From positions 1 through 14,868 of IMG/VR virus record IMGVR_UViG_2563366990_000002: DNA of 14,868 nt. One strand, given 5' to 3'. This DNA is from a virus (Duplodnaviria; Heunggongvirae; Uroviricota; Caudoviricetes). A program made the position numbers and the translations under genes. Position 1 is the first letter of the stretch. Each line of letters begins with the position of its first letter. The notes beneath the pieces were generated by a model. It was not told the origin of the DNA, ran no database searches, and was given only the letters and a program-made list of their open reading frames with translations. Positions 4,471-14,868 of this stretch are shown piece by piece.

Positions 4471-5490
4471 TTATGCGCCGACGTCTTCGGCTTCTTCTGC
4501 GCCCTTGATGGTCAGCTTGTCGTAGGCCGCGTAAATTTCGTCGTGCTCCACGGCGTAACCTTCCATGCGCAGATAGTTATTTTCAAAACGCTTGCGATCG
4601 TCGTTCCACTCCGCACGGCGCTGACGGGTGCCGCGCTGCGTGTAGATGTGAAGGTTTGCCAGCGTGGTGACAATCAGGCGCCCTTCCGGCATGAACGGCG
4701 GGGTGTATGCTGTCAGCCCGGCGATCTGGCGACCGATAAGCTGCGCGGCCACTTTTTCCGTGGGGGCGTCGATGGCGTTAAGCAGCGTCACCTTGTCCTG
4801 TGCCACAAGATCGGGCGCAACCAGTACCACCAGATCCGGATGACCGCGATACGACTCATCAATGAGGGTATGCACGAGGTCTGCCACGGCTGCATCCAGC
4901 CCGATAAAGTCGCCACCCTTGCCCAGCGTCGGGCCAGCCTCCACGATCTGTTTTGCGCTGCGGCCTTTGACGATGGCATGCCAGCCGGTGTTGACGTCCT
5001 CGCCGTTTTTGTTGGTTACCGGGTCGGTATCTTCGGCTACGCTGGTACCGTTAAAGGCGATGCGCAGGATATCCAGCGCAATCTGTCTGTTAACGAAATT
5101 CTGAATGCGGTTAAAGAACTCGTTTTCACTTCCTGCGTTCGCCCAGGTGACCAGTGTGGTGTACAGGAGGTGGGCGCCGGAATCGGTTTCAGCCAGCTTG
5201 TATTCATTCCCGGTAACACCCAGCGGAAGGGTGAAGCGGGCATTTTTTTTACGTCCGGTATGGAGGCCCGGAACGCCGGTGGTAACCACCTGGCCTGTCA
5301 CCTGTTCAACATCCAGCACGTTCGGCAGTTTTGATAAAAACTCGTCGGAGTGCATGATGGCGTCACGCAGCGCGGTCTCCTTCGGGTCAGACAGCGCAAA
5401 ATAGCGTGTGACGTCGTCAACTCCGTTTGCCGCACCCAGCCCGGCAGCGTACTTACGAAGCAGTGATTCGGTTTTCTGGTTCAGTTGCAT
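4471..5490 (-). CDS. N: major capsid protein, P2 gpN family
   Basis: 339-aa ORF between the scaffold and small terminase genes; size close to P2 gpN (about 357 aa) and conserved gene order. Uninterrupted long ORF with normal amino-acid composition. Confidence 0.9.
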   Translation of the reverse strand: MQLNQKTESLLRKYAAGLGAANGVDDVTRYFALSDPKETALRDAIMHSDEFLSKLPNVLDVEQVTGQVVTTGVPGLHTGRKKNARFTLPLGVTGNEYKLAETDSGAHLLYTTLVTWANAGSENEFFNRIQNFVNRQIALDILRIAFNGTSVAEDTDPVTNKNGEDVNTGWHAIVKGRSAKQIVEAGPTLGKGGDFIGLDAAVADLVHTLIDESYRGHPDLVVLVAPDLVAQDKVTLLNAIDAPTEKVAAQLIGRQIAGLTAYTPPFMPEGRLIVTTLANLHIYTQRGTRQRRAEWNDDRKRFENNYLRMEGYAVEHDEIYAAYDKLTIKGAEEAEDVGA

Positions 5491-6560: not shown

Positions 6561-6726
6561 CGTGGCCTCTTTTACGTGAAAATCTGAAGAACTCCGGTGA
6601 GTGTCGGGATTTTTACAGCGGGGGGCTACTGGCTGAATTCGGCTGTCTTCGGATAACGTGGGATAGCCGAACACAGCCGAAATTTTCTGCCTGAATGCGG
6701 GCCGGATGCGCCGCCATAATGGGCGC
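6561..6726. promoter_or_regulatory. divergent late-promoter region between the gpO and gpP operons
   Basis: 166-bp non-coding gap between divergently transcribed capsid and terminase/portal operons. Contains a 13-bp imperfect inverted repeat (CGGCTGTCTTCGG at 6640-6652, CCGAACACAGCCG at 6667-6679) and a TGT-N10-ACA element at 6602-6617. In P2 the equivalent region carries Ogr-activated late promoters. Confidence 0.55.
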
Positions 6727-8529
6727 ATGGCTAAATATTCTGACGAAATTAAAGAGGCGGCCCGCTCGCTTTATCTGAAGCGGTGGCATCCCCGAGATAT
6801 TGCGGCGGAGCTCGGTATTCCGCCGCGCACGGTTTACCACTGGTGTGATGTGGGGCAGTGGGCCGCCCTGCTGCCCGCTGAATCCGTTGAGGAGGTGATC
6901 GCCCGGCGTATTGATGTGCTGACCGGGCGCGAGGGTAAGACGGAGTGCGAACTTGCCGAACTGCGCGAGCTTATCGCACAGCACGTGAAGATTATCGCCC
7001 AGAAAAACAAACACGCTGAAAGGATGGCGGAAATTGCCGCCACGCGTCCGGCAGTGTGCGACGACGGTGTGGCGGCGACCAGCGGCGGGGGGGAAGGGAA
7101 AAAGCGGCGCTACCGGAAAAACAACGTTTCCGGGCTGACTGCTGAAATGCTGGATGCATGGGCGCGTAAAAATCTTTATGCCTACCAGCTGCACTGCCGC
7201 GAGAACCGGCACCGTGAGTGGCGTTTCATCCTCAAGAGTCGCCAGATAGGCATGACCTGGTATTTTGCATGGGAGGCGTTCGAAGATGCGGTGGTGACTG
7301 GTGATAACCAGATATTCTTTTCTGCGTCACGGGTTCAGGCGGAAATCTTCCGCGAATATATTATTAATTTCGCCCTGCAGTTCGGGATCACGCTCACGGG
7401 TAAGCATATCCGTTTAAGCAATGGCGCAATGCTGCGTTTCCTGTCCACCAATGCCAGTACCGCCCAGGGATTTAACGGCCACCTTTACGGCGATGAGGTG
7501 TTCTGGATCCCAAAATTCACGCGACTGCATGAAGTGGCCTCGGCAATGGCAACCCACGACAAATACCGCACGACGTACTTTTCGACACCCAGCGCCAAAA
7601 CCCACCAGGCTTATCTGGTCTGGAACGGTGACGACTGGCGCGGGGATGATCCGGCGCGTCGTGCTGTTGAGTTTCCGAAAGAAAGCGCGATGCGTGTGGG
7701 CTGTGAATGCCCTGACGGGATCTGGCGCTACATTATCCGGCTGGAAGAGGCGGTGGCGGGTGGCCTGTCTGCACGGGTTGATATTGAACGTATCAGGAAC
7801 CGCTACAACCCGACCACCTATGCGATGCTGTACGGCTGCGAGTTTGTTGACAGCAAGGATGCGGTATTTAAGTTCTCCGAACTGGTCAGGTGTGAGGTGG
7901 AGATGGAGACGTGGGGTGACTACGATCCCACGGCGGCACGTCCGTTCGGCAATCGTGAGGTGTGGGCGGGCTTTGACCCGTCAAGGTCCGGGGATAATTC
8001 CACGTTTGTAATTGTGGCTCCGCCTGTCCATGAGGGCGAGCGGTTCCGTGTGCTCGCCGTCTGGCAGTGGCAGGGATTTAACTTCACCTGGCAGGCCGAT
8101 CAGATCCGCGAACTGATGCAGCGCTTTAACATTACCTATATCGGCATAGATATCACCGGTATCGGGAAAGGGGTGTTTGATATCGTCAGTCGCTTTGCGC
8201 CACGTGAGGCTAACGCCATTCTTTACAGCGTGGAGAGCAAAAACCGCCTGGTGATGAAAATGATAGACGTGGTGGCCCATAAGCGTATCGAGTGGGCGAA
8301 AGACGCCATTGATGAGGCCAGCCGTGAACGCACGGAGATCCCCGCGTCGTTCATGTCCATACGCCGCACCACCACAAAAAGCGGTAACGCGCTGACGTTC
8401 GTGGCGGAACGGTCGGATGTTACGGGGCATGCGGATGTGTTTTTTGCCATTTCGCACGCCGTGATTAATGAGCCTGTAGATTATGACTATGAACGCCCGT
8501 CCACATGGGCCTTCGGGAAAGCCGCATGA
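6727..8529 (+). CDS. P: terminase large (ATPase) subunit, P2 gpP family
   Basis: 600 aa from ATG at 6727 (MAKYSDEIK...); size matches P2 gpP (about 590 aa). Divergent from gpO and followed by the portal gene with a 4-nt ATGA overlap. An alternative start at 6706 would add 7 aa. Confidence 0.9.
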   Translation: MAKYSDEIKEAARSLYLKRWHPRDIAAELGIPPRTVYHWCDVGQWAALLPAESVEEVIARRIDVLTGREGKTECELAELRELIAQHVKIIAQKNKHAERMAEIAATRPAVCDDGVAATSGGGEGKKRRYRKNNVSGLTAEMLDAWARKNLYAYQLHCRENRHREWRFILKSRQIGMTWYFAWEAFEDAVVTGDNQIFFSASRVQAEIFREYIINFALQFGITLTGKHIRLSNGAMLRFLSTNASTAQGFNGHLYGDEVFWIPKFTRLHEVASAMATHDKYRTTYFSTPSAKTHQAYLVWNGDDWRGDDPARRAVEFPKESAMRVGCECPDGIWRYIIRLEEAVAGGLSARVDIERIRNRYNPTTYAMLYGCEFVDSKDAVFKFSELVRCEVEMETWGDYDPTAARPFGNREVWAGFDPSRSGDNSTFVIVAPPVHEGERFRVLAVWQWQGFNFTWQADQIRELMQRFNITYIGIDITGIGKGVFDIVSRFAPREANAILYSVESKNRLVMKMIDVVAHKRIEWAKDAIDEASRERTEIPASFMSIRRTTTKSGNALTFVAERSDVTGHADVFFAISHAVINEPVDYDYERPSTWAFGKAA

Positions 8530-9578
8530 GCAAGAAACGCAGAAACAAAACGTCACGCGTGACGAAAAAAGCATTCACGCCCGCACGTGGCAGCACAATC
8601 ACGTTTGGTCAGCCGGAACCGGTGCTGACCACCGGCACGGACTACCATAACATCTGGTATGACAACGAACACAACCACTGGCAGCTGCCGATTAACCGCC
8701 TGGCACTGGCGCAGCTCCCGAACCTTAACGCCCAGCACGGTGGGGTGCTGTATGCCCGCCGTAACATGGTGGCGGGGGGCTATACCGGTGGTGGTCTCAC
8801 AACGGACCAGATGGAACAGGCGGTATTTGACTACCTGTTGTTCGGCGATCTCGCCCTGCTCAAGGTGCGTAACGTATTCGGCGACGTCGTGGCACTTGAG
8901 CCGCTTCCGTCGCTGTATCTCCGGCGCCGCAAAACCGGTGAGTTCGTGGTGCTTCAGGAAGGTCCCGCGCTGGTCTATACGCCGGAAGATATTATCTTTC
9001 TGCGGATGTATGATCCGCGTCAGCAAATTTACGGGCTGCCGGATTATATCGGTGGCATCCACTCGGCGCTGCTGAACAGCGAGGCCAGCCTTTTTCGTCG
9101 CCGTTACTACAACAACGGGGCGCATATGGGCTTTTTGCTGTATACGAACGACCCTGGGATCACCACGGAGATGGAGGATGAGATCCGCGAGAAGGTGGCG
9201 GAGTCTAAGGGGCTGGGAAATTTCCGCAATCTGTACATCAACATCCCCAAAGGTTCGCCGGATGGGGTGAAAATTATTCCGATTGGTGAGGTGAGCGCCA
9301 AGGATGAATTTTCAAACATCAAGGGGATCAGCGCCCAGGATGTGTTTACGGCACACCGCTTTCCTGCCGGTCTTGCGGGGATTATCCCCACGAACGGGGC
9401 CACCATCCCTAACCCGGAAACGACGCGTGAAACGTACCGCAAGGATGAGGTGATACCGCTTCAGCGTAAAATCATGAACGCCGTGAACAGCGATCCCGAT
9501 ATACCGGAACACCTTTATCTTTGTTTTGATGTGGATGCCGGGCATGTGGCGGAAGAAAAAGCGGTGCCGGTCGGGTAA
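8526..9578 (+). CDS. Q: portal protein, P2 gpQ family
   Basis: 350 aa from ATG at 8526 (MSKKRRNK...), overlapping the gpP stop. Size matches P2 gpQ (about 344 aa) and P-then-Q co-transcription matches P2. Confidence 0.9.
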   Translation: MSKKRRNKTSRVTKKAFTPARGSTITFGQPEPVLTTGTDYHNIWYDNEHNHWQLPINRLALAQLPNLNAQHGGVLYARRNMVAGGYTGGGLTTDQMEQAVFDYLLFGDLALLKVRNVFGDVVALEPLPSLYLRRRKTGEFVVLQEGPALVYTPEDIIFLRMYDPRQQIYGLPDYIGGIHSALLNSEASLFRRRYYNNGAHMGFLLYTNDPGITTEMEDEIREKVAESKGLGNFRNLYINIPKGSPDGVKIIPIGEVSAKDEFSNIKGISAQDVFTAHRFPAGLAGIIPTNGATIPNPETTRETYRKDEVIPLQRKIMNAVNSDPDIPEHLYLCFDVDAGHVAEEKAVPVG

Positions 9579-9615: not shown

Positions 9616-9879
9616 ATGCGGATTTTTAAAGCCCGGTGTCCTGACTGTGGCGCACCTGCTGTCATCCGGAAGACAGACTGGAAAACCCCTGAACTTGCGG
9701 ATCTGTACTGTGCATGCAGTGATGTCGAATGCGGGCATACCTTCGTCTGTACGATGACCTTTTCCCATACCCTCAGCCCCGGTGCCCGCTCCGGTCGCAA
9801 TATGGTGAAGTTTCTTGTTGATGCCATGCGCCCGGAAGATCGCCGGTATGCGCTTGAACTACTGTCGCGGCGTTCCTGA
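9616..9879 (+). CDS. Ogr/Delta-family C4 zinc-finger transcriptional activator homolog
   Basis: 87 aa from ATG at 9616, preceded by strong GGGAGG at 4-nt spacing. Motif CPDC-x20-C-x-C-x4-C-x2-TF aligns with P2 Ogr (CPLC ... YHQCQNVNCSATF). Has a roughly 40-aa C-terminal extension relative to the zinc-finger core. Confidence 0.8.
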   Translation: MRIFKARCPDCGAPAVIRKTDWKTPELADLYCACSDVECGHTFVCTMTFSHTLSPGARSGRNMVKFLVDAMRPEDRRYALELLSRRS

Positions 9880-9895: not shown

Positions 9896-9940
9896 GCTGC
9901 TTCGCCGGGGCAAAAAGAATTTTTACCCCGGCGAAGCAGC
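9896..9940. repeat. perfect 15-bp-stem inverted repeat (GCTGCTTCGCCGGGG ... CCCCGGCGAAGCAGC) with A5/T5 loop
   Basis: Read directly from the sequence. Located 17 bp after the Ogr-like gene stop. No U-tract follows on either strand, so it is not a classic intrinsic terminator; could be an RNA stability or termination element or a protein-binding or packaging-related site. Confidence 0.7.
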
Positions 9941-9975
9941 CCTGATAAAGGGGGGGGGTGGTGTAAATTCGGACG

Positions 9976-10649: not shown

Positions 10650-11054
10650 TTACCTGCGTGATTGTCTGCCAGCGGCTGAATGCACATAGCGGGCAATTGC
10701 CGCTTTGCGGTTAATCGATGCCAGTGTTCTGGTGAGTTCTGCGTTGTGTTTGTGTGCCTGCTCTTCGTGGTACTGCCGCATGATTTTTCCGGCAGGCGTG
10801 AGCGGCTCCGGCTCTCCGGGCGGACGGCGCGGACGAACGGCGACAAGCCAGCTGCGGTTGGTGCTGTCCGGTCGTCCGTTGAGTATGTCGGTGATGATGG
10901 TCGTGGTGGTGCGATCGGGACTGACGACCGTGATTTCCAGCTCATCGCCCGGTTGTGGCCCCGTGGCAATGTTGTTCAGGGTCAGTAAGGGCGTGCGCTG
11001 GCGCATCAGTTCGTCAAAACGCTGTCGCTGCATGGCGCAATAAAAGCGGGTCAT
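10650..11054 (-). CDS. hypothetical 134-aa protein, translationally coupled to the replication gene
   Basis: ATG at 11054 overlaps the gpA stop (ATGA at 11051-11054). Pro/Arg-rich sequence with no recognised family. The region is GC-rich with several overlapping alternative-frame ORFs, so coding status is moderately uncertain. Confidence 0.5.
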   Translation of the reverse strand: MTRFYCAMQRQRFDELMRQRTPLLTLNNIATGPQPGDELEITVVSPDRTTTTIITDILNGRPDSTNRSWLVAVRPRRPPGEPEPLTPAGKIMRQYHEEQAHKHNAELTRTLASINRKAAIARYVHSAAGRQSRR

Positions 11055-13570
11055 TGTGGCGCCTCCGTATTCGGTGCGGGGGTGATATCAATGCGGCGGG
11101 TGCTGTCATTCCAGTACGAGGTGCGCCCGTCAGCCAGGCGCACGCGGGCACCGTGACGGACGGAAACGACGGCGCTTTCATGCAGCTGCACGCCCAGCGC
11201 ATCAAGCTCGCGGGTGATTTGTGCGGTGATGTGTGGCTCAGCGGTCAGAGCGACACTCACGCGAACGCCGCCAGCGGGCGCACTGATGCCGCCGTTTTTC
11301 ACGGTTTCCGTGTCAGGTGGCGGGCTTTTCAGCTGCCTGGTGAGTTGTTTTCGCTCTGTGGGGGTCAGTGACCTTAACCATTCACCCAAATCACCTTCCG
11401 GCAGGGTAAGTCGCTGCTCCCTGCGTCCGTCCGGCTGCCTTTCTGGCGGGTCGTTTATGGTCAGATTCTGGTCAGGGGGACAGTTATTGCCACGAGTCCA
11501 AGGTGCGGCAAAGCCGCACTCAACGTCAAAACCCTCGTCCGTGCGGTCTTCGTTTTCCGGCTTACGTCTGACCAGTTTCCAGGTGTCCGGGTGGGTGCAT
11601 ATGGTGTAGCGCTCCCCGAGTGACGGGGCGCGGACGCCGTAAATACGTTGCGGGAATTCGCCGTAGTCGTTGGCCTCTTCGGCAGTTTCGTATGCGGTGC
11701 GGACCAGGTACGTGTTGCGGGGAATGAGCACACCACCCTGGCGGGTGATATAGGTGGCAAAACATCCCACGTCGGCGGCGGCCAGTATGGCGTCAATGTC
11801 GTCATGGTCCAGACGCTGCGGGGCAGCCGGGTTACGGGCCATCTGCCCGGCAAGACGGCGGAGTTCGCGCCATACCTGGCGGGGCGGGATACCGAAGAAC
11901 TGGAACTGGTGGATGCGGTGAAGGCCTGCCCAGCCGATGGCGTTCTCCACGGTTTCGGCCATGGTTTTGCCTGATTCCTTATCGACGTAAGGTTTGCCGG
12001 TTTTCGGGTCATTCCCCATGAAGGTGCTGGCGTCCAGGTTCTTACCGATATAGGTCGCGATATAGCTTGTCGGTGTGCCTTTTGTCGGGTCGATTTTTTC
12101 GCATTTAAAACGCGGGGAGATATCATCACCCAGCTCTGCGCGGTCCTCCCTGATGGCGGCGTTGCGCATGATTTCAGTGATACGGGCTTCGTTTTCCTGG
12201 CTGGTGAATACCAGCATGTGCCAGTGCGGTGTACCGTCGTGGTGGGGCTCCACTGTGCGCACGCCGTACCAGCCCAGCCCGGCCTTGTCGATGGCCCTGC
12301 GGACGGCGGCGAAAAAGCGGTAAACCAGATAATCACTGGCATCGCGTACCGTTGCTCCGCAGTATTTCGGGTTCAGGCTGCCGTCATCGTTCACGCTGTG
12401 AAAACGGGAAGGGGCTGTGACGGTGACGAAAAACGCCACGTCGCCGCGTGCTTCGGCGACCTGCTCCATCCCCCGGACGCAGGCCATCATCTCGTTACGG
12501 CGGTTACGCGGATTAGAGAGACCTGCCCAGTAGATATCCTCAAGGCTGAACCGTTCTCCCTCTTCGTTCTCGATGTCCCAGGCCTTCAGAAAATCGCGGG
12601 TGCGCTGGCGTTTTTCGCGCCAGTCCAGTAACGCTTCATGGCTGATATATACCGACGTCTTACGTGACACCAGGCCTGCGGCGCGTAACAGCTCTTCACG
12701 CCAGATGTCCCGGAGGTGTCTTAACTGACTGTTCCACCATGTCGCACAGGAAAGGCGCATGACCGCACCCGGCACCCGTTCCGGGTCGGGGTCGGTGCGG
12801 CGGTCGGGCCTGATTTCCAGCGACGGCCAGCAGGGTGGCGTGATACCCAGTTTTAACGCCATGTGTGCCAGTGGCTGGTAGGTCAGTAACCAGGTGAGCA
12901 GGTCATCGTCACCCCTGCCGGTCTTTTCGATGACTTCATCACATGCGCGCTCCAGTGCGGTGGAAAACGCGGTGGCGGTCAGGGTGGCAAGGCGCTGGAT
13001 TTCGTCACGGCTCAGCTGTGGCAGCATAAGCAGTTCATCCAGCCGTTCGCGCGCGGCGGTGGCCTTAAAGGCCGGGGTGGCAAAGCGTTCATTCACACGG
13101 GCGATACGTTTCAGGCGGGCACGCAGCCCGTGACGAACGAAGTTATCCGCCGCATATGCGCTGTTATTCTTAAGCCCTTCCCGGCGTGCGCTCTCCTGTT
13201 TGCGGCTCAGGCGCGCCAGGTCACGGATGAGCGGACCGGCAAGAAACGGCGGCAGGGCGCGCAGCTCTGCCATGGCTTCAGATACCAGCGTTGGCGGATT
13301 TTCGCGTTTGTGTCGCGTCAGTTTTTCCAGTCTGATCCGACGCTCTTCGTCGTGATGAAGATGCGAATTAATTCGCTTCCCTTCGTCTGTGGTTGTCAGG
13401 AAGGCGACGGTTTCTTCATCCAGTCTGGCGTCAGTGCGAATATCCTCGTTGATGTAGCTCTGAATGGCCTGGCGTAATGCGGTTGGCTGCGCTCTGCCGA
13501 ACGTTTCAGGATCGATAACCGGTAGCGGGGCGTTCCACGGGTACGCCAGCTGTGCATTGTGGTCACTCAT
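11051..13570 (-). CDS. A: replication initiation endonuclease, P2 gpA family (rolling-circle HUH nickase)
   Basis: 839 aa from ATG at 13570 (MSDHNAQLAYPW...). Contains the HUH-type motif PHWHMLVF characteristic of P2 A / phiX174 A-type rolling-circle initiators; size comparable to P2 gpA (about 761 aa). The track's GTG start at 13579 is less likely than the ATG that overlaps the upstream stop. Confidence 0.9.
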   Translation of the reverse strand: MSDHNAQLAYPWNAPLPVIDPETFGRAQPTALRQAIQSYINEDIRTDARLDEETVAFLTTTDEGKRINSHLHHDEERRIRLEKLTRHKRENPPTLVSEAMAELRALPPFLAGPLIRDLARLSRKQESARREGLKNNSAYAADNFVRHGLRARLKRIARVNERFATPAFKATAARERLDELLMLPQLSRDEIQRLATLTATAFSTALERACDEVIEKTGRGDDDLLTWLLTYQPLAHMALKLGITPPCWPSLEIRPDRRTDPDPERVPGAVMRLSCATWWNSQLRHLRDIWREELLRAAGLVSRKTSVYISHEALLDWREKRQRTRDFLKAWDIENEEGERFSLEDIYWAGLSNPRNRRNEMMACVRGMEQVAEARGDVAFFVTVTAPSRFHSVNDDGSLNPKYCGATVRDASDYLVYRFFAAVRRAIDKAGLGWYGVRTVEPHHDGTPHWHMLVFTSQENEARITEIMRNAAIREDRAELGDDISPRFKCEKIDPTKGTPTSYIATYIGKNLDASTFMGNDPKTGKPYVDKESGKTMAETVENAIGWAGLHRIHQFQFFGIPPRQVWRELRRLAGQMARNPAAPQRLDHDDIDAILAAADVGCFATYITRQGGVLIPRNTYLVRTAYETAEEANDYGEFPQRIYGVRAPSLGERYTICTHPDTWKLVRRKPENEDRTDEGFDVECGFAAPWTRGNNCPPDQNLTINDPPERQPDGRREQRLTLPEGDLGEWLRSLTPTERKQLTRQLKSPPPDTETVKNGGISAPAGGVRVSVALTAEPHITAQITRELDALGVQLHESAVVSVRHGARVRLADGRTSYWNDSTRRIDITPAPNTEAPQ

Positions 13571-13983
13571 GCGTCGCACTCCCCGGCAGTCGCCGCCTGA
13601 AACGCCGCGCGGTACAGCACGAGAAGGCGCTGGTATTCACCGATAAAGTCTTCTGCGGTGTATATGCCTTTCACGGCCACGCTGTGCGTTGTCATTTCCA
13701 GAACAAGCGTCATCTCTGACGACGACCAGCTGATGGCGGTGCTGTCGGTTCCGTTGATGTGAAATAAACCAAAACCATCACCATCGCCTTTCACGTCCAC
13801 GCGGTAACGGCCGTCAACGGTGAAGGAGAAATCCCCGTATGTGGTGACGCGTCTGGCGGCCTGTTTACAGGCGCGGCGGTAATAGTCGTGCCAGTCGTTC
13901 AGGCGGGAAGCCAGCCGGGGATCCACTGCCCACATCCAGTTAAAAAAATCCTGAATATCTGAAAGTCCCTTAACGCTCTTCAT
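13567..13983 (-). CDS. hypothetical 138-aa early-operon protein
   Basis: ATG at 13983 preceded by GGAGG at 5-nt spacing; stop overlaps the gpA start (ATGA at 13567-13570). Position corresponds to the small ORFs upstream of A in P2-like early operons. Confidence 0.6.
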   Translation of the reverse strand: MKSVKGLSDIQDFFNWMWAVDPRLASRLNDWHDYYRRACKQAARRVTTYGDFSFTVDGRYRVDVKGDGDGFGLFHINGTDSTAISWSSSEMTLVLEMTTHSVAVKGIYTAEDFIGEYQRLLVLYRAAFQAATAGECDA

Positions 13984-14051: not shown

Positions 14052-14333
14052 TTAGTGGTGGTGTTGCTGCTGGTTGATAAGGTCCTGCAGTTCTGCCAGG
14101 TCTTCGGCCAGATAGCTGAAGACTGCCGCGTAATACCCGGCAGCGATACCATCGTTAAGTCGATGTAATGCGTTTGACTGCATGATGAAGGTGACAGATG
14201 CAGCCCGATGGAGTCTGCGGTTAATTTCAGTGCGGATGTGAAGACGCTCAGCGCGGGCGCGCTGTTGGTGACTGGAGTTCAGACGTGTGCTCTTCCGATC
14301 TGCGCGGGCGCGCTGTTGTTTGCGGTTTGCCAT
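14052..14333 (-). CDS. hypothetical small early-operon protein, reading frame contaminated by a 51-bp adapter-derived insertion
   Basis: ATG at 14333 preceded by GAGG. The encoded segment ADRKSTRLNSSHQQRAR (and SEEHTSELQSPTARPR in the overlapping 14248..14514 minus-strand track ORF) comes from the Illumina adapter plus duplicated flank; the native protein is probably about 76 aa. Confidence 0.5.
   Translation of the reverse strand: MANRKQQRARADRKSTRLNSSHQQRARAERLHIRTEINRRLHRAASVTFIMQSNALHRLNDGIAAGYYAAVFSYLAEDLAELQDLINQQQHHH
14268..14301 (+). other. Illumina TruSeq adapter sequence (GTGACTGGAGTTCAGACGTGTGCTCTTCCGATCT), assembly contamination
   Basis: Exact 34-nt match to the standard Illumina adapter as I recall it, flanked by a perfect 17-bp direct duplication GCGCGGGCGCGCTGTTG at 14251-14267 and 14302-14318. 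Confidence 0.9.
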
Positions 14334-14505
14334 GGTGTGGCCTCTTTGGTTGTGAATTTTGAAAACTCACCATCCAGAGGTGGAAAACTCGGGGTGGCGA
14401 GGCGTACAGGGTTTCCACAACCGGTAACCAAAGAACCCGGCCCGACCGAAGTCGGCCCCGTACGCCCCGCCATAATTCTGACGCGAAAAAGACGTGGCAA
14501 TACAG

Positions 14506-14531
14506 TACGCACAAAAAAACCGCTGGCGCGG
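14506..14531 (-). terminator. candidate intrinsic terminator on the minus strand
   Basis: On the minus strand, a short stem AACCGC-GCCA-GCGGTT followed by a T7 run (plus-strand A7 at 14513-14519), about 125 nt downstream of the truncated minus-strand ORF ending at 14654. Stem is short, so strength is uncertain. Confidence 0.4.
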
Positions 14532-14653
14532 TTGTGCGCTTTGGTTATCGGCGGGGTGGAAATCCCGGCACCCGTTTTATGAGGTGCGGGAAAACTGTAA
14601 CCCGACCAGGCGAACGCTGGCAAGCGGTTTTTTTGTGTGTGCATGATGATCAC

Positions 14654-14868
14654 TCAGCCCGGTAACAGTTCACAGAGCACTGCGTCAGTTGCGGTGCGGC
14701 GGTGGTAGAGATGAAACGCCGCATCGTCGTTAATGTGCATCTGTATCGTGCTGTTGATGTGTTCAGCGATCATGCAGAACGTCATGTTGTGTATGTCGCG
14801 TAGCTCCGTGACCAGCTCAACCAGATGATCGCTGTATCTGGCGCAATGGTGGTTCTCACCGCATTTTT
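14654..14868 (-). CDS. hypothetical protein, 5'-truncated by the window edge
   Basis: Open frame on the minus strand running from the window end to a TGA at 14654-14656 (...HINSTIQMHINDDAAFHLYHRRTATDAVLCELLPG). Same orientation as the early operon; identity unknown. Confidence 0.45.
   Translation of the reverse strand, partial: KCGENHHCARYSDHLVELVTELRDIHNMTFCMIAEHINSTIQMHINDDAAFHLYHRRTATDAVLCELLPG

Follow-up and report, generated by a model that had tools for sequence, protein, structure and literature searches.

The subject of this study is a gap of about 320 bp (positions 14334-14653) in the early operon carried by the virus record IMGVR_UViG_2563366990_000002 (Caudoviricetes), and the pair of RNAs, IsrK and C4, for which this gap codes. 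The whole stretch of 14,868 nucleotides (nt) that was analysed is referred to as the window. The gap lies between the ATG at 14333 of a minus-strand open reading frame (14052-14333), coding for a 'derepression' protein, and the TGA (14656-14654) of the gene upstream of it. All genes around the interval and both RNAs are on the minus strand, which is the sense strand of the early operon, and the interval is to be read as its reverse complement. An earlier reading made from the letters alone (the sequence-only reading) had drawn attention to the unusual length of this gap, correctly as the coordinates show, and had described it as a non-coding segment with inverted repeats, nested GC-rich hairpins and a motif resembling the cohesive end (cos) of phage P2, with no mention of the strand.

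The whole window was scanned against Rfam with the curated gathering cut-offs, which are 50 bits for RF01394 (isrK), 45 bits for RF01695 (C4) and 46.7 bits for RF03163 (c4-a1b1). Exactly two hits were obtained, one to isrK and one to C4, both on the minus strand, full length and above cut-off. The features of the element are listed below in the order in which they are met on the minus strand.

14623-14637, minus strand: upstream arm of an inverted repeat, reading CACAAAAAAACCGCT; an A7-CCGCT block whose A7 is immediately 5' of the -35 hexamer, with an overlap of 1 nt
14594-14623, minus strand: promoter-like site P(isrK), TTGCCA-18-TACAGT, sigma-70-type, from a consensus scan
14513-14587, minus strand: IsrK-type leader RNA (equivalent of P4 'seqA'), Rfam RF01394, 64.3 bits, model positions 1-77 of 77
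14562-14556, minus strand: b1, UUUCCAC, in the loop of IsrK hairpin 2
14547-14539, minus strand: a1, UAACCAAAG, in the IsrK linker
14390-14477, minus strand: C4 / CI-type antisense RNA, Rfam RF01695, 83.4 bits, model positions 1-87 of 87, E = 1.6e-15
14434-14425, minus strand: a', 5'-(U)CUUUGGUUA, in the loop of C4 hairpin 2
14418-14412, minus strand: b', 5'-GUGGAAA, in the single strand following C4 hairpin 2
14380-14386, minus strand: b2, UUUCCAC, just 3' of C4 and complementary to b' of C4 (GUGGAAA)
14351-14343, minus strand: a2, AACCAAAGA, overlapping the Shine-Dalgarno sequence AAAGAGG

From 5' to 3', the IsrK-type leader has two hairpins, an unpaired linker and an intrinsic terminator, for which the terminator scan gave a 6-bp GC-rich stem (14533-14518) and a U7 tract (14519-14513). 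Its minimum-energy fold agreed with the Rfam structure (z -1.7). The -10 hexamer of P(isrK) ends 7 nt before nucleotide 1 of the isrK model, which predicts, from the consensus match only, a transcription start at about 14587. Promoter-like sites of the same geometry are present in P88 (TTGCCA-18-TACATT) and in P4 (TTGCCT-18-TATAGT, with 7 nt between its end and the leader); the position of this P4 site is where we take the promoter PLE to be. A second promoter-like site in the window, TTGCCA-17-AATTAT (14500-14472), whose -10 sits in the AAUUAU leader, was treated as a chance match because the start would fall inside the 5' stem strand of C4 and because the -35 hexamer is not conserved (TCGCCA in P88). 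IsrK is located directly upstream of C4, from which it is separated by a spacer of 35 nt, and is complementary to it. The order isrK then C4, and the orientation of the two, were kept in all five further loci that were scanned with Rfam.

The C4 RNA folds into a 17-bp outer stem enclosing a UUCG hairpin (14458-14443) and a second hairpin, with loop 2 and the strand following it unpaired. The minimum-energy fold reproduced the Rfam consensus exactly (-49.9 kcal/mol, z -4.35). The nested GC-rich hairpins noticed earlier are parts of this fold: CCGAC-CGAA-GTCGG (14442-14455) is the UUCG-capped first hairpin within the 17-bp stem, and GGCGTAC...GTACGCC plus GGCGAGGCG correspond to the two strands of the stem itself. 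GGCGAGGCG, at 14396-14404 on the plus strand, is the 3' strand of the stem. RNAs of the C4 family (P1/P7 C4, P4 CI) are characterised as stable products of about 77-80 nt that RNase P frees from a longer transcript and that repress in trans; the sole sequence sign of such a release in the window is a stem followed by ACCC. Across 39 distinct relatives the C4 stems were 100% paired and pairing over the RNA scaffolds was 96.4% overall; this adds little beyond the Rfam scores, because the scaffolds are almost invariant in this close set. Every feature listed in the sequence-only reading belongs to the IsrK-C4 module. Two of the functions it had offered, a structured small RNA and a regulatory or terminator module, agree with the two RNAs recognised by Rfam and with the promoter-like site and intrinsic terminator, and the covariance-model search and folding that it had proposed yielded the full-length C4 and isrK matches and the consensus fold of C4.

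A repeat search in the window revealed, on either side of C4, complements of its exposed elements: a1/b1 in the leader and b2/a2 downstream. The Shine-Dalgarno sequence overlapped by a2 (14347-14341) is 7 nt before the ATG of the derepression gene (14333-14331). When the invariant core of C4 hairpin 1 was used as query, 120 viral contigs were obtained. The a'/b' elements proved to be hypervariable, with 27 types in the usable regions and 28 when all 125 typed loci were counted; the a' type of P88, for example, is CUGUAGUUG. For b' an exact complement of 6-8 nt was found at fixed offsets, upstream and downstream, in all 27 types. For a' an exact complement of 7-10 nt was present in 24 of the 27 types on the upstream side and likewise in 24 of 27 on the downstream side, and the shorter matches are partly explained by G-U wobble pairs. 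The longest self matches averaged 7.2-9.0 nt versus 4.4-5.1 nt for non-self combinations.

Covariation was evaluated in a gap-free alignment of 39 distinct P88-like sequences extending from the start of IsrK to the ATG. In the pairing of a'/b' with a1/b1, 99.8% of the 624 cells were paired, 146 double-sided changes were counted and 11 of the 16 pairs covaried; the corresponding controls gave 72.4 +/- 1.2% for shuffled sequences and 30-54% for slid registers. The pairing of a'/b' with b2/a2 was of similar quality (99.4% of the cells paired, 136 double-sided changes, 10 of 16 pairs covarying). The contribution of b2 to this was four covarying pairs out of seven with 100% of the cells paired, and that of a2 six out of nine with 98.9% of the cells paired. 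No shuffle or slid register approached the observed values in the upstream or in the downstream test. The comparison with the same interval in related prophages, which had been suggested with the sequence-only reading, showed both that the interval is present there and that its pairings covary across the 39 relatives.

The predicted cognate duplexes had energies of -31.8 kcal/mol upstream and -27.0 kcal/mol downstream, whereas fully heterologous duplexes were predicted at -17.8 and -14.8 kcal/mol, respectively, a gain of approximately 12-14 kcal/mol for the cognate combination. Folding of the read-through RNA to minimum energy predicted a cis interaction between the middle of IsrK and the a'/b' region of C4. 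An additional complementarity, between CGGUUGUG of C4 and CACAACCG in the 5' half of the isrK terminator, was rejected as its isrK side is constant and its C4 side varies. All five pairs of prophages sharing a genome differed in type, which says little, since random pairs match in only 8%. In two P4-like loci (L019 and L119) b' is UUUCCAC, the exact complement of b' in the window (14412-14418) and identical to b1 and b2 of the window. Judged by this complementarity, a satellite CI RNA may in principle pair with the C4 RNA of its helper, although a match of 7 nt is perhaps due to chance.

The gene found at a2 varies across types. It is mostly epsilon-like; in another group it is an anti-repressor gene of the Rha type (identified by eye), and in P4-like loci it is Kil. 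Because the gene differs in this way, the IsrK-C4 module is, as far as its sequence context indicates, a portable cassette that controls anti-repressor or kil genes.

The inverted repeat seen in the sequence-only reading is real and perfect over 15 nt, but its arms are at slightly different positions than had been given: CACAAAAAAACCGCT occupies 14510-14524 and its complement 14623-14637 (not 14511-14525 and 14621-14635), and with 90% complementarity the repeat can be followed over 21 nt. It is beyond chance: in 500 dinucleotide shuffles of the interval the longest repeat was 13 nt, and a length of 15 nt was never attained. Its left arm coincides with the 3' half and the U7 tract of the isrK terminator. 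The upstream arm was invariant in all six aligned relatives. The repeat was kept in the P88-like group, was reduced to 10 nt in three lineages and was absent from the P4 and Rha-type loci. Both arms were invariant where present, and a change in the tail of L039 was uncompensated. In the predicted fold of RNAs starting upstream of the internal promoter the helix formed by the repeat replaces the terminator hairpin (-54.7 kcal/mol, z -5.3). On the strength of this modelled fold the repeat is a candidate device for read-through by transcripts from the early promoter. This role is speculative, because the local hairpin should form first kinetically. Instead, or in addition, the A7 tract may serve as an UP-like promoter element. 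Another inverted repeat, AACTGTTACC / GGTTACAGTT, which flanks the promoter, was dropped because it is not conserved in relatives.

Judged by its genes, the source of the window is a P2-type temperate phage. The window encodes the large terminase subunit (6706-8529, plus strand), the portal protein (8505-9578, plus strand) and a gene-A-type replication endonuclease (11051-13579, minus strand; Pfam Phage_GPA, E = 5e-107). The nearest matches of the interval region were in Escherichia phage P88, Citrobacter phage PhiSM and other Xuanwuvirus (Peduoviridae) records. There the homologous stretch belongs to the early operon beginning with cox; it has a variable early gene on one side and, on the other, a 'derepression protein' gene preceding the replication gene. 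Over its full 320 bp the interval was 98.4% identical to a complete E. coli chromosome (JNEC-KY171 prophage). It was found in 1158 of 5426 complete E. coli genomes, and together with both flanks it was collinear with five independent relatives. One locus, L007, contains two tandem isrK-C4 modules (4574-4762 and 5233-5421), about 660 nt apart, in front of an anti-repressor gene that by eye looks Rha-type. In the genome annotations the interval was empty or mislabelled, and the RNAs were annotated in no record. The Prokaryotic Genome Annotation Pipeline (PGAP) labelled the RNA interval as an 'ash family protein' pseudogene in O157:H7 FRIK2533, and in the P88 record a hypothetical open reading frame, gp13, lies over C4 on the opposite strand (L005 4039-4308; L001 5087-5275). 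A search for LexA boxes with at most two mismatches was negative. Downstream of the portal gene there is a Cys-rich open reading frame (CPDC...CACSDVEC; 9617-9879, plus strand) that resembles zinc-finger late activators of the Ogr/Delta type, and after it come a strong hairpin (cttcgccggggc...gccccggcgaag) and a G-run (9897-9962).

The coding features adjoining or crossing the interval are the following.

14654-14868, minus strand: 3' part of the upstream early-operon gene, cut by the edge of the window, with its TGA stop at 14656-14654 (from the list of open reading frames and the sequence)
14279-14653, minus strand: Ash/Eta-like open frame running through isrK and C4, with GTG at 14653 and ATG at 14644
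14052-14333, minus strand: P4-epsilon-like 'derepression' (anti-repressor) gene, Pfam PF25738, 27.4 bits with a cut-off of 27

In the closest relative the homologue of the upstream gene is annotated as a SANT/Myb-like DNA-binding protein. The derepression protein showed 32% identity to P4 epsilon over 50 amino acids (BLASTP, E = 3e-7), and its frame is under constraint, with variation greatest at third codon positions. In the window this gene is damaged: an Illumina TruSeq adapter sequence of 34 nt, GTGACTGGAGTTCAGACGTGTGCTCTTCCGATCT (14268-14301), is located between 17-nt direct duplications (14251-14267 and 14302-14318). Adapter and duplication together make up an in-frame insertion of 51 nt, which lengthens the protein from about 76 to 93 amino acids. 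The insertion was absent from five relatives, and in an artefact-free relative the PF25738 score was 29.3 bits. The artefact (14251-14318) is outside the RNAs and 16 bp away from the interval.

A contig search with the derepression protein (about 75% identity, strict peptide patterns) gave two more loci, both with isrK and C4 in front of the gene. One of these is from Salmonella. The other, L128 (NZ_JBQPOM010000071.1, 74% protein identity to the query), is labelled Vagococcus sp.; a contig with a Firmicute label and a module of enterobacterial type is probably a contamination or a mislabelled assembly. The sequence suggests that mosaic recombination has taken place directly downstream of a2: the central part of the derepression gene was much more divergent from JNEC-KY171 (L003 3773-4000) than the interval was, and resembled the PhiSM/L110 type. 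Identical derepression proteins occurred with different a'/b' types.

IsrK is a structural homologue of P4 seqA, and C4 is a homologue of the P4 CI RNA (PMC4825925, PMC3632133, PMC10111431). The IsrK-C4 system is known in P4, P1/P7, N15, lambdoid Salmonella prophages and satellites of the phage-inducible chromosomal island type (PMC3632133, PMC4825925, PMC10111431). We found no account in the literature of an IsrK-C4 module in P2-type or P88-like phages, and the papers on P88 and PhiSM are silent about it.

The arrangement in the window closely parallels that of P4. In P4 isrK (8692-8615) is followed by C4 (8507-8420), in the same order and on the same strand, upstream of epsilon, the helper-derepression gene. 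The promoter-like site (TTGCCT-18-TATAGT) has identical geometry, the leader is closed by a U7-GUG terminator, the C4/CI scaffold is shared, b' is complementary to both sides, an Ash/Eta-like frame runs over the RNAs and an epsilon-family derepression gene follows; seqA, seqB and seqC of P4 match a1b1, a'b' and a2b2 of the window, respectively. There are also differences. The host element in the window is a complete P2-type phage (GPA, terminase, portal), whereas P4 is a satellite. The spacer between leader and C4 is 35 nt in the window and about 107 nt in P4. The covered ribosome-binding site belongs to the epsilon-like gene in the window and to kil in P4, and in the window the epsilon-like gene is out of frame with the Ash-like frame. 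The 15-nt inverted repeat flanks the leader in the window but not in P4.

The antisense arrangement of c4 in the immI region (c4-icd-ant) of phages P1 and P7 was reportedly described by Citron and Schuster in 1990. There too the antisense RNA derives from the transcript of its own target and carries two recognition elements, a' and b', with targets a1/b1 upstream and a2/b2 downstream, the latter at the ribosome-binding site of the first gene of the anti-repressor operon, and specificity differs between heteroimmune relatives (Rfam descriptions, PMC8198154). This comparison with P1 is by description. The target in the window is an epsilon-type derepression protein of about 75 amino acids and not Icd/Ant, and the primary repressor of the window phage is of the P2 C type, whereas that of P1 is C1.

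In the isrK-orf45/STnc1160-anrP region of Gifsy-1 the promoter PisrK gives rise to a short terminated IsrK and to a read-through RNA that carries a stable C4-like RNA followed by the anti-repressor gene, and IsrK is complementary to the C4-like segment (PMC4825925). The cis fold predicted for the window, in which IsrK pairs with a'/b', resembles the published inactive 'structure A' (PMC4825925). Gifsy-1 is lambdoid, and what is targeted there is a small open reading frame, orf45, whose translation is coupled to that of anrP, the output being AntQ (PMC4825925); in the window it is the ribosome-binding site of the anti-repressor gene itself that constitutes a2. Gifsy-1 IsrK binds Hfq and activates the read-through mRNA in trans, switching on translation of the anti-repressor and inducing the prophage (PMC4825925). 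This activating role has been shown in Gifsy-1 (PMC4825925); for the window phage we infer it.

In the interpretation that we prefer and regard as likely, the interval is an RNA-based immunity module belonging to a temperate P2-type phage that resembles P88 (Xuanwuvirus). The module would be homologous to PLE-seqA-CI-seqC of P4 and would share its logic with P1/P7 immI (c4-icd-ant) and with isrK-STnc1160-anrP of Gifsy-1. As read from the sequence, the promoter-like site inside the early operon would start transcription at about 14587, and transcripts ending at the terminator (14533-14513) would yield an IsrK of about 75 nt. The RNA arising by read-through would contain the 88-nt C4 element. 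The further steps are modelled on the known systems. The internal promoter would stay active in the lysogen, and C4 would be cut from the read-through transcript, at its 5' end by RNase P, and would accumulate. It would then pair in trans with b2/a2 and block ribosome binding to the anti-repressor gene, and through the loss of translation, transcription would stop by polar (Rho-dependent) termination ahead of the early genes further downstream, replication gene A among them. Pairing with a1/b1, either in the nascent leader or in free IsrK, would modulate termination and set the level of free C4. IsrK would act as a competitor or decoy able to flip the switch towards anti-repressor synthesis and prophage derepression. 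Hypervariable, co-varying a'/b' elements and their targets would define immunity specificities, and a superinfecting relative of another type would escape the resident C4. The many different a'/b' types are consistent with selection for heteroimmunity of the kind that exists between P1 and P7.

Several points weigh against this interpretation. All functional steps beyond complementarity are drawn by analogy. IsrK alone folds only weakly better than shuffled sequence, as its z value of -1.7 indicates, and the near invariance of the RNA scaffold in close relatives makes scaffold covariation weak. The c4-a1b1 model (RF03163), which scored 44.1 bits in P4 and 47.6 bits in L019, gave no hit in the window even at E <= 1, which is a further difference from P4; despite this missing match, a function of a1/b1 is supported by the covariation of their sequences. 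Lytic early transcripts from the cox side must somehow pass the IsrK terminator and the C4 block. Finally, the open Ash/Eta-like frame crosses the interval, which may therefore not be purely non-coding.

This last point leads to the alternative that the interval is mainly protein-coding, namely the 5' half of a gene resembling P4 Eta/Ash, with the RNAs embedded in it and translation as the functional feature. Ribosomes coming from the upstream early gene would then, for instance, suppress termination and C4 action in lytic growth, as in the case of P4 eta, whose translation through the region suppresses CI-dependent termination (PMC10111431). The frame begins directly after, and in frame with, the TGA of the upstream gene and stays open through isrK and C4. 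In most relatives it comprises about 210 codons (e.g. L001 4720-5340), the other two frames being closed within about 30 nt; it crosses the whole derepression gene in the +1 frame and is open in 48 of 49 variants of that gene. In the window the adapter insertion adds an early stop. The Pfam family PF10554 (Phage_ASH; cut-off 26 bits), whose N-terminal half the frame resembles, matched with 27.1 bits in P88, but the 22.9 bits in the window are below the cut-off; moreover, the match is limited to the part encoding the RNAs and may merely reflect RNA conservation. In one O157 genome PGAP labelled the stretch as a pseudogene of the 'ash family'. Stops or changes in loop length break the frame in several lineages (L009, L041/L052/L120, L050 and L090), in which the RNAs are kept. 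No constraint at the amino acid level was seen in the downstream part, where the Ash-like frame had the most amino acid changes per nucleotide change; the constrained frame is that of the derepression gene. On balance we regard a mainly coding interval as rather unlikely, but an analogous suppressing role of the Ash-like frame, by comparison with P4, is possible. The earlier description of the segment as non-coding was accurate insofar as no annotated gene covers it in relatives, and needs qualifying insofar as this frame runs through it.

The presence of a predicted terminator (14533-14513) and the ability of the 15-nt repeat to replace its hairpin in longer RNAs would also be compatible with a mere terminator or attenuator between two early genes, acting with no RNA in trans; we find this very unlikely, because it leaves unexplained the full-length match to C4 and the three-way covariation of a'/b' with both sides. 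Even less can be said for an assembly chimera or mis-join connected with the neighbouring adapter, a concern that the sequence-only reading had raised. The adapter and the 17-nt duplication are indeed only 16 bp from the interval, and unrelated phage records matched that stretch (14251-14318) and nothing else. However, the collinearity with five relatives, the 98.4% identity over 320 bp to a complete chromosome and the occurrence in 1158 of 5426 complete genomes, with nothing displaced apart from the 51-nt insertion, render a chimeric interval highly improbable. The remaining suggestion, a packaging (cos) or recombination site, was prompted by GGCGAGGCG as the first 9 nt of the P2 cohesive end, and the phage is P2-like. 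The 9-mer is present, two positions away from where it had been placed (14396-14404 instead of 14394-14402). Only these first 9 nt match: the 19-nt cohesive-end sequence of P2/P4, which we take to be GGCGAGGCGGGGAAAGCAC, had no match with up to three mismatches. By chance alone 0.30 copies of such a 9-mer are expected per window, and 50 of 200 shuffles contained at least one. The 9-mer forms a strand of the C4 stem and was found in one of the 39 distinct relatives, that of the window itself; the pair 124-187 that distinguishes it is G-C in this one and G-U in the other 38. As part of the early operon the site is also about 5 kb away from the genes for the portal protein and the terminase. As far as sequence analysis can tell, a cos or recombination function can practically be dismissed.

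With an IsrK-C4 immunity module as the preferred interpretation, an apparently empty gap, and the PGAP 'ash family' pseudogene in a related prophage, turn into two known regulatory RNAs. Both families are already curated in Rfam; what seems to be new is their occurrence in a very common lineage of P2-type prophages with an unusually clear covariation series. Annotations of this prophage type, which is very common in E. coli, Salmonella and Citrobacter, omit both RNAs. The natural series of co-varying recognition elements is directly usable for the design of specificity swaps. The analysis has also flagged an adapter-derived insertion of 51 nt that corrupts the downstream gene in the assembly.

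A wider picture can be drawn, which we offer tentatively and consider doubtful as a whole. In P88-like P2-type phages, which about one fifth of the complete E. coli genomes contain, the C repressor would be supplemented by a second layer of immunity made of RNA, in which C4 silences an epsilon-type anti-repressor and the IsrK decoy triggers self-induction. The co-varying a'/b' types, at least 27 in number, would represent an RNA 'immunity barcode', and helper and P4-like satellite could read or jam each other's switches. The idea of such cross-talk stems from the fact that P4-like satellites carry the same C4 scaffold, with the b' of L019 and L119 complementary to that of the window as a hint. 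Transcripts from the early promoter would override the terminator with the help of the conserved inverted repeat or of ribosomes translating the Ash-like frame. If the mechanism proposed for the interval holds, it would show how a P2-type phage controls an epsilon-like anti-repressor, and would provide a candidate route to induction and to heteroimmunity among similar prophages.

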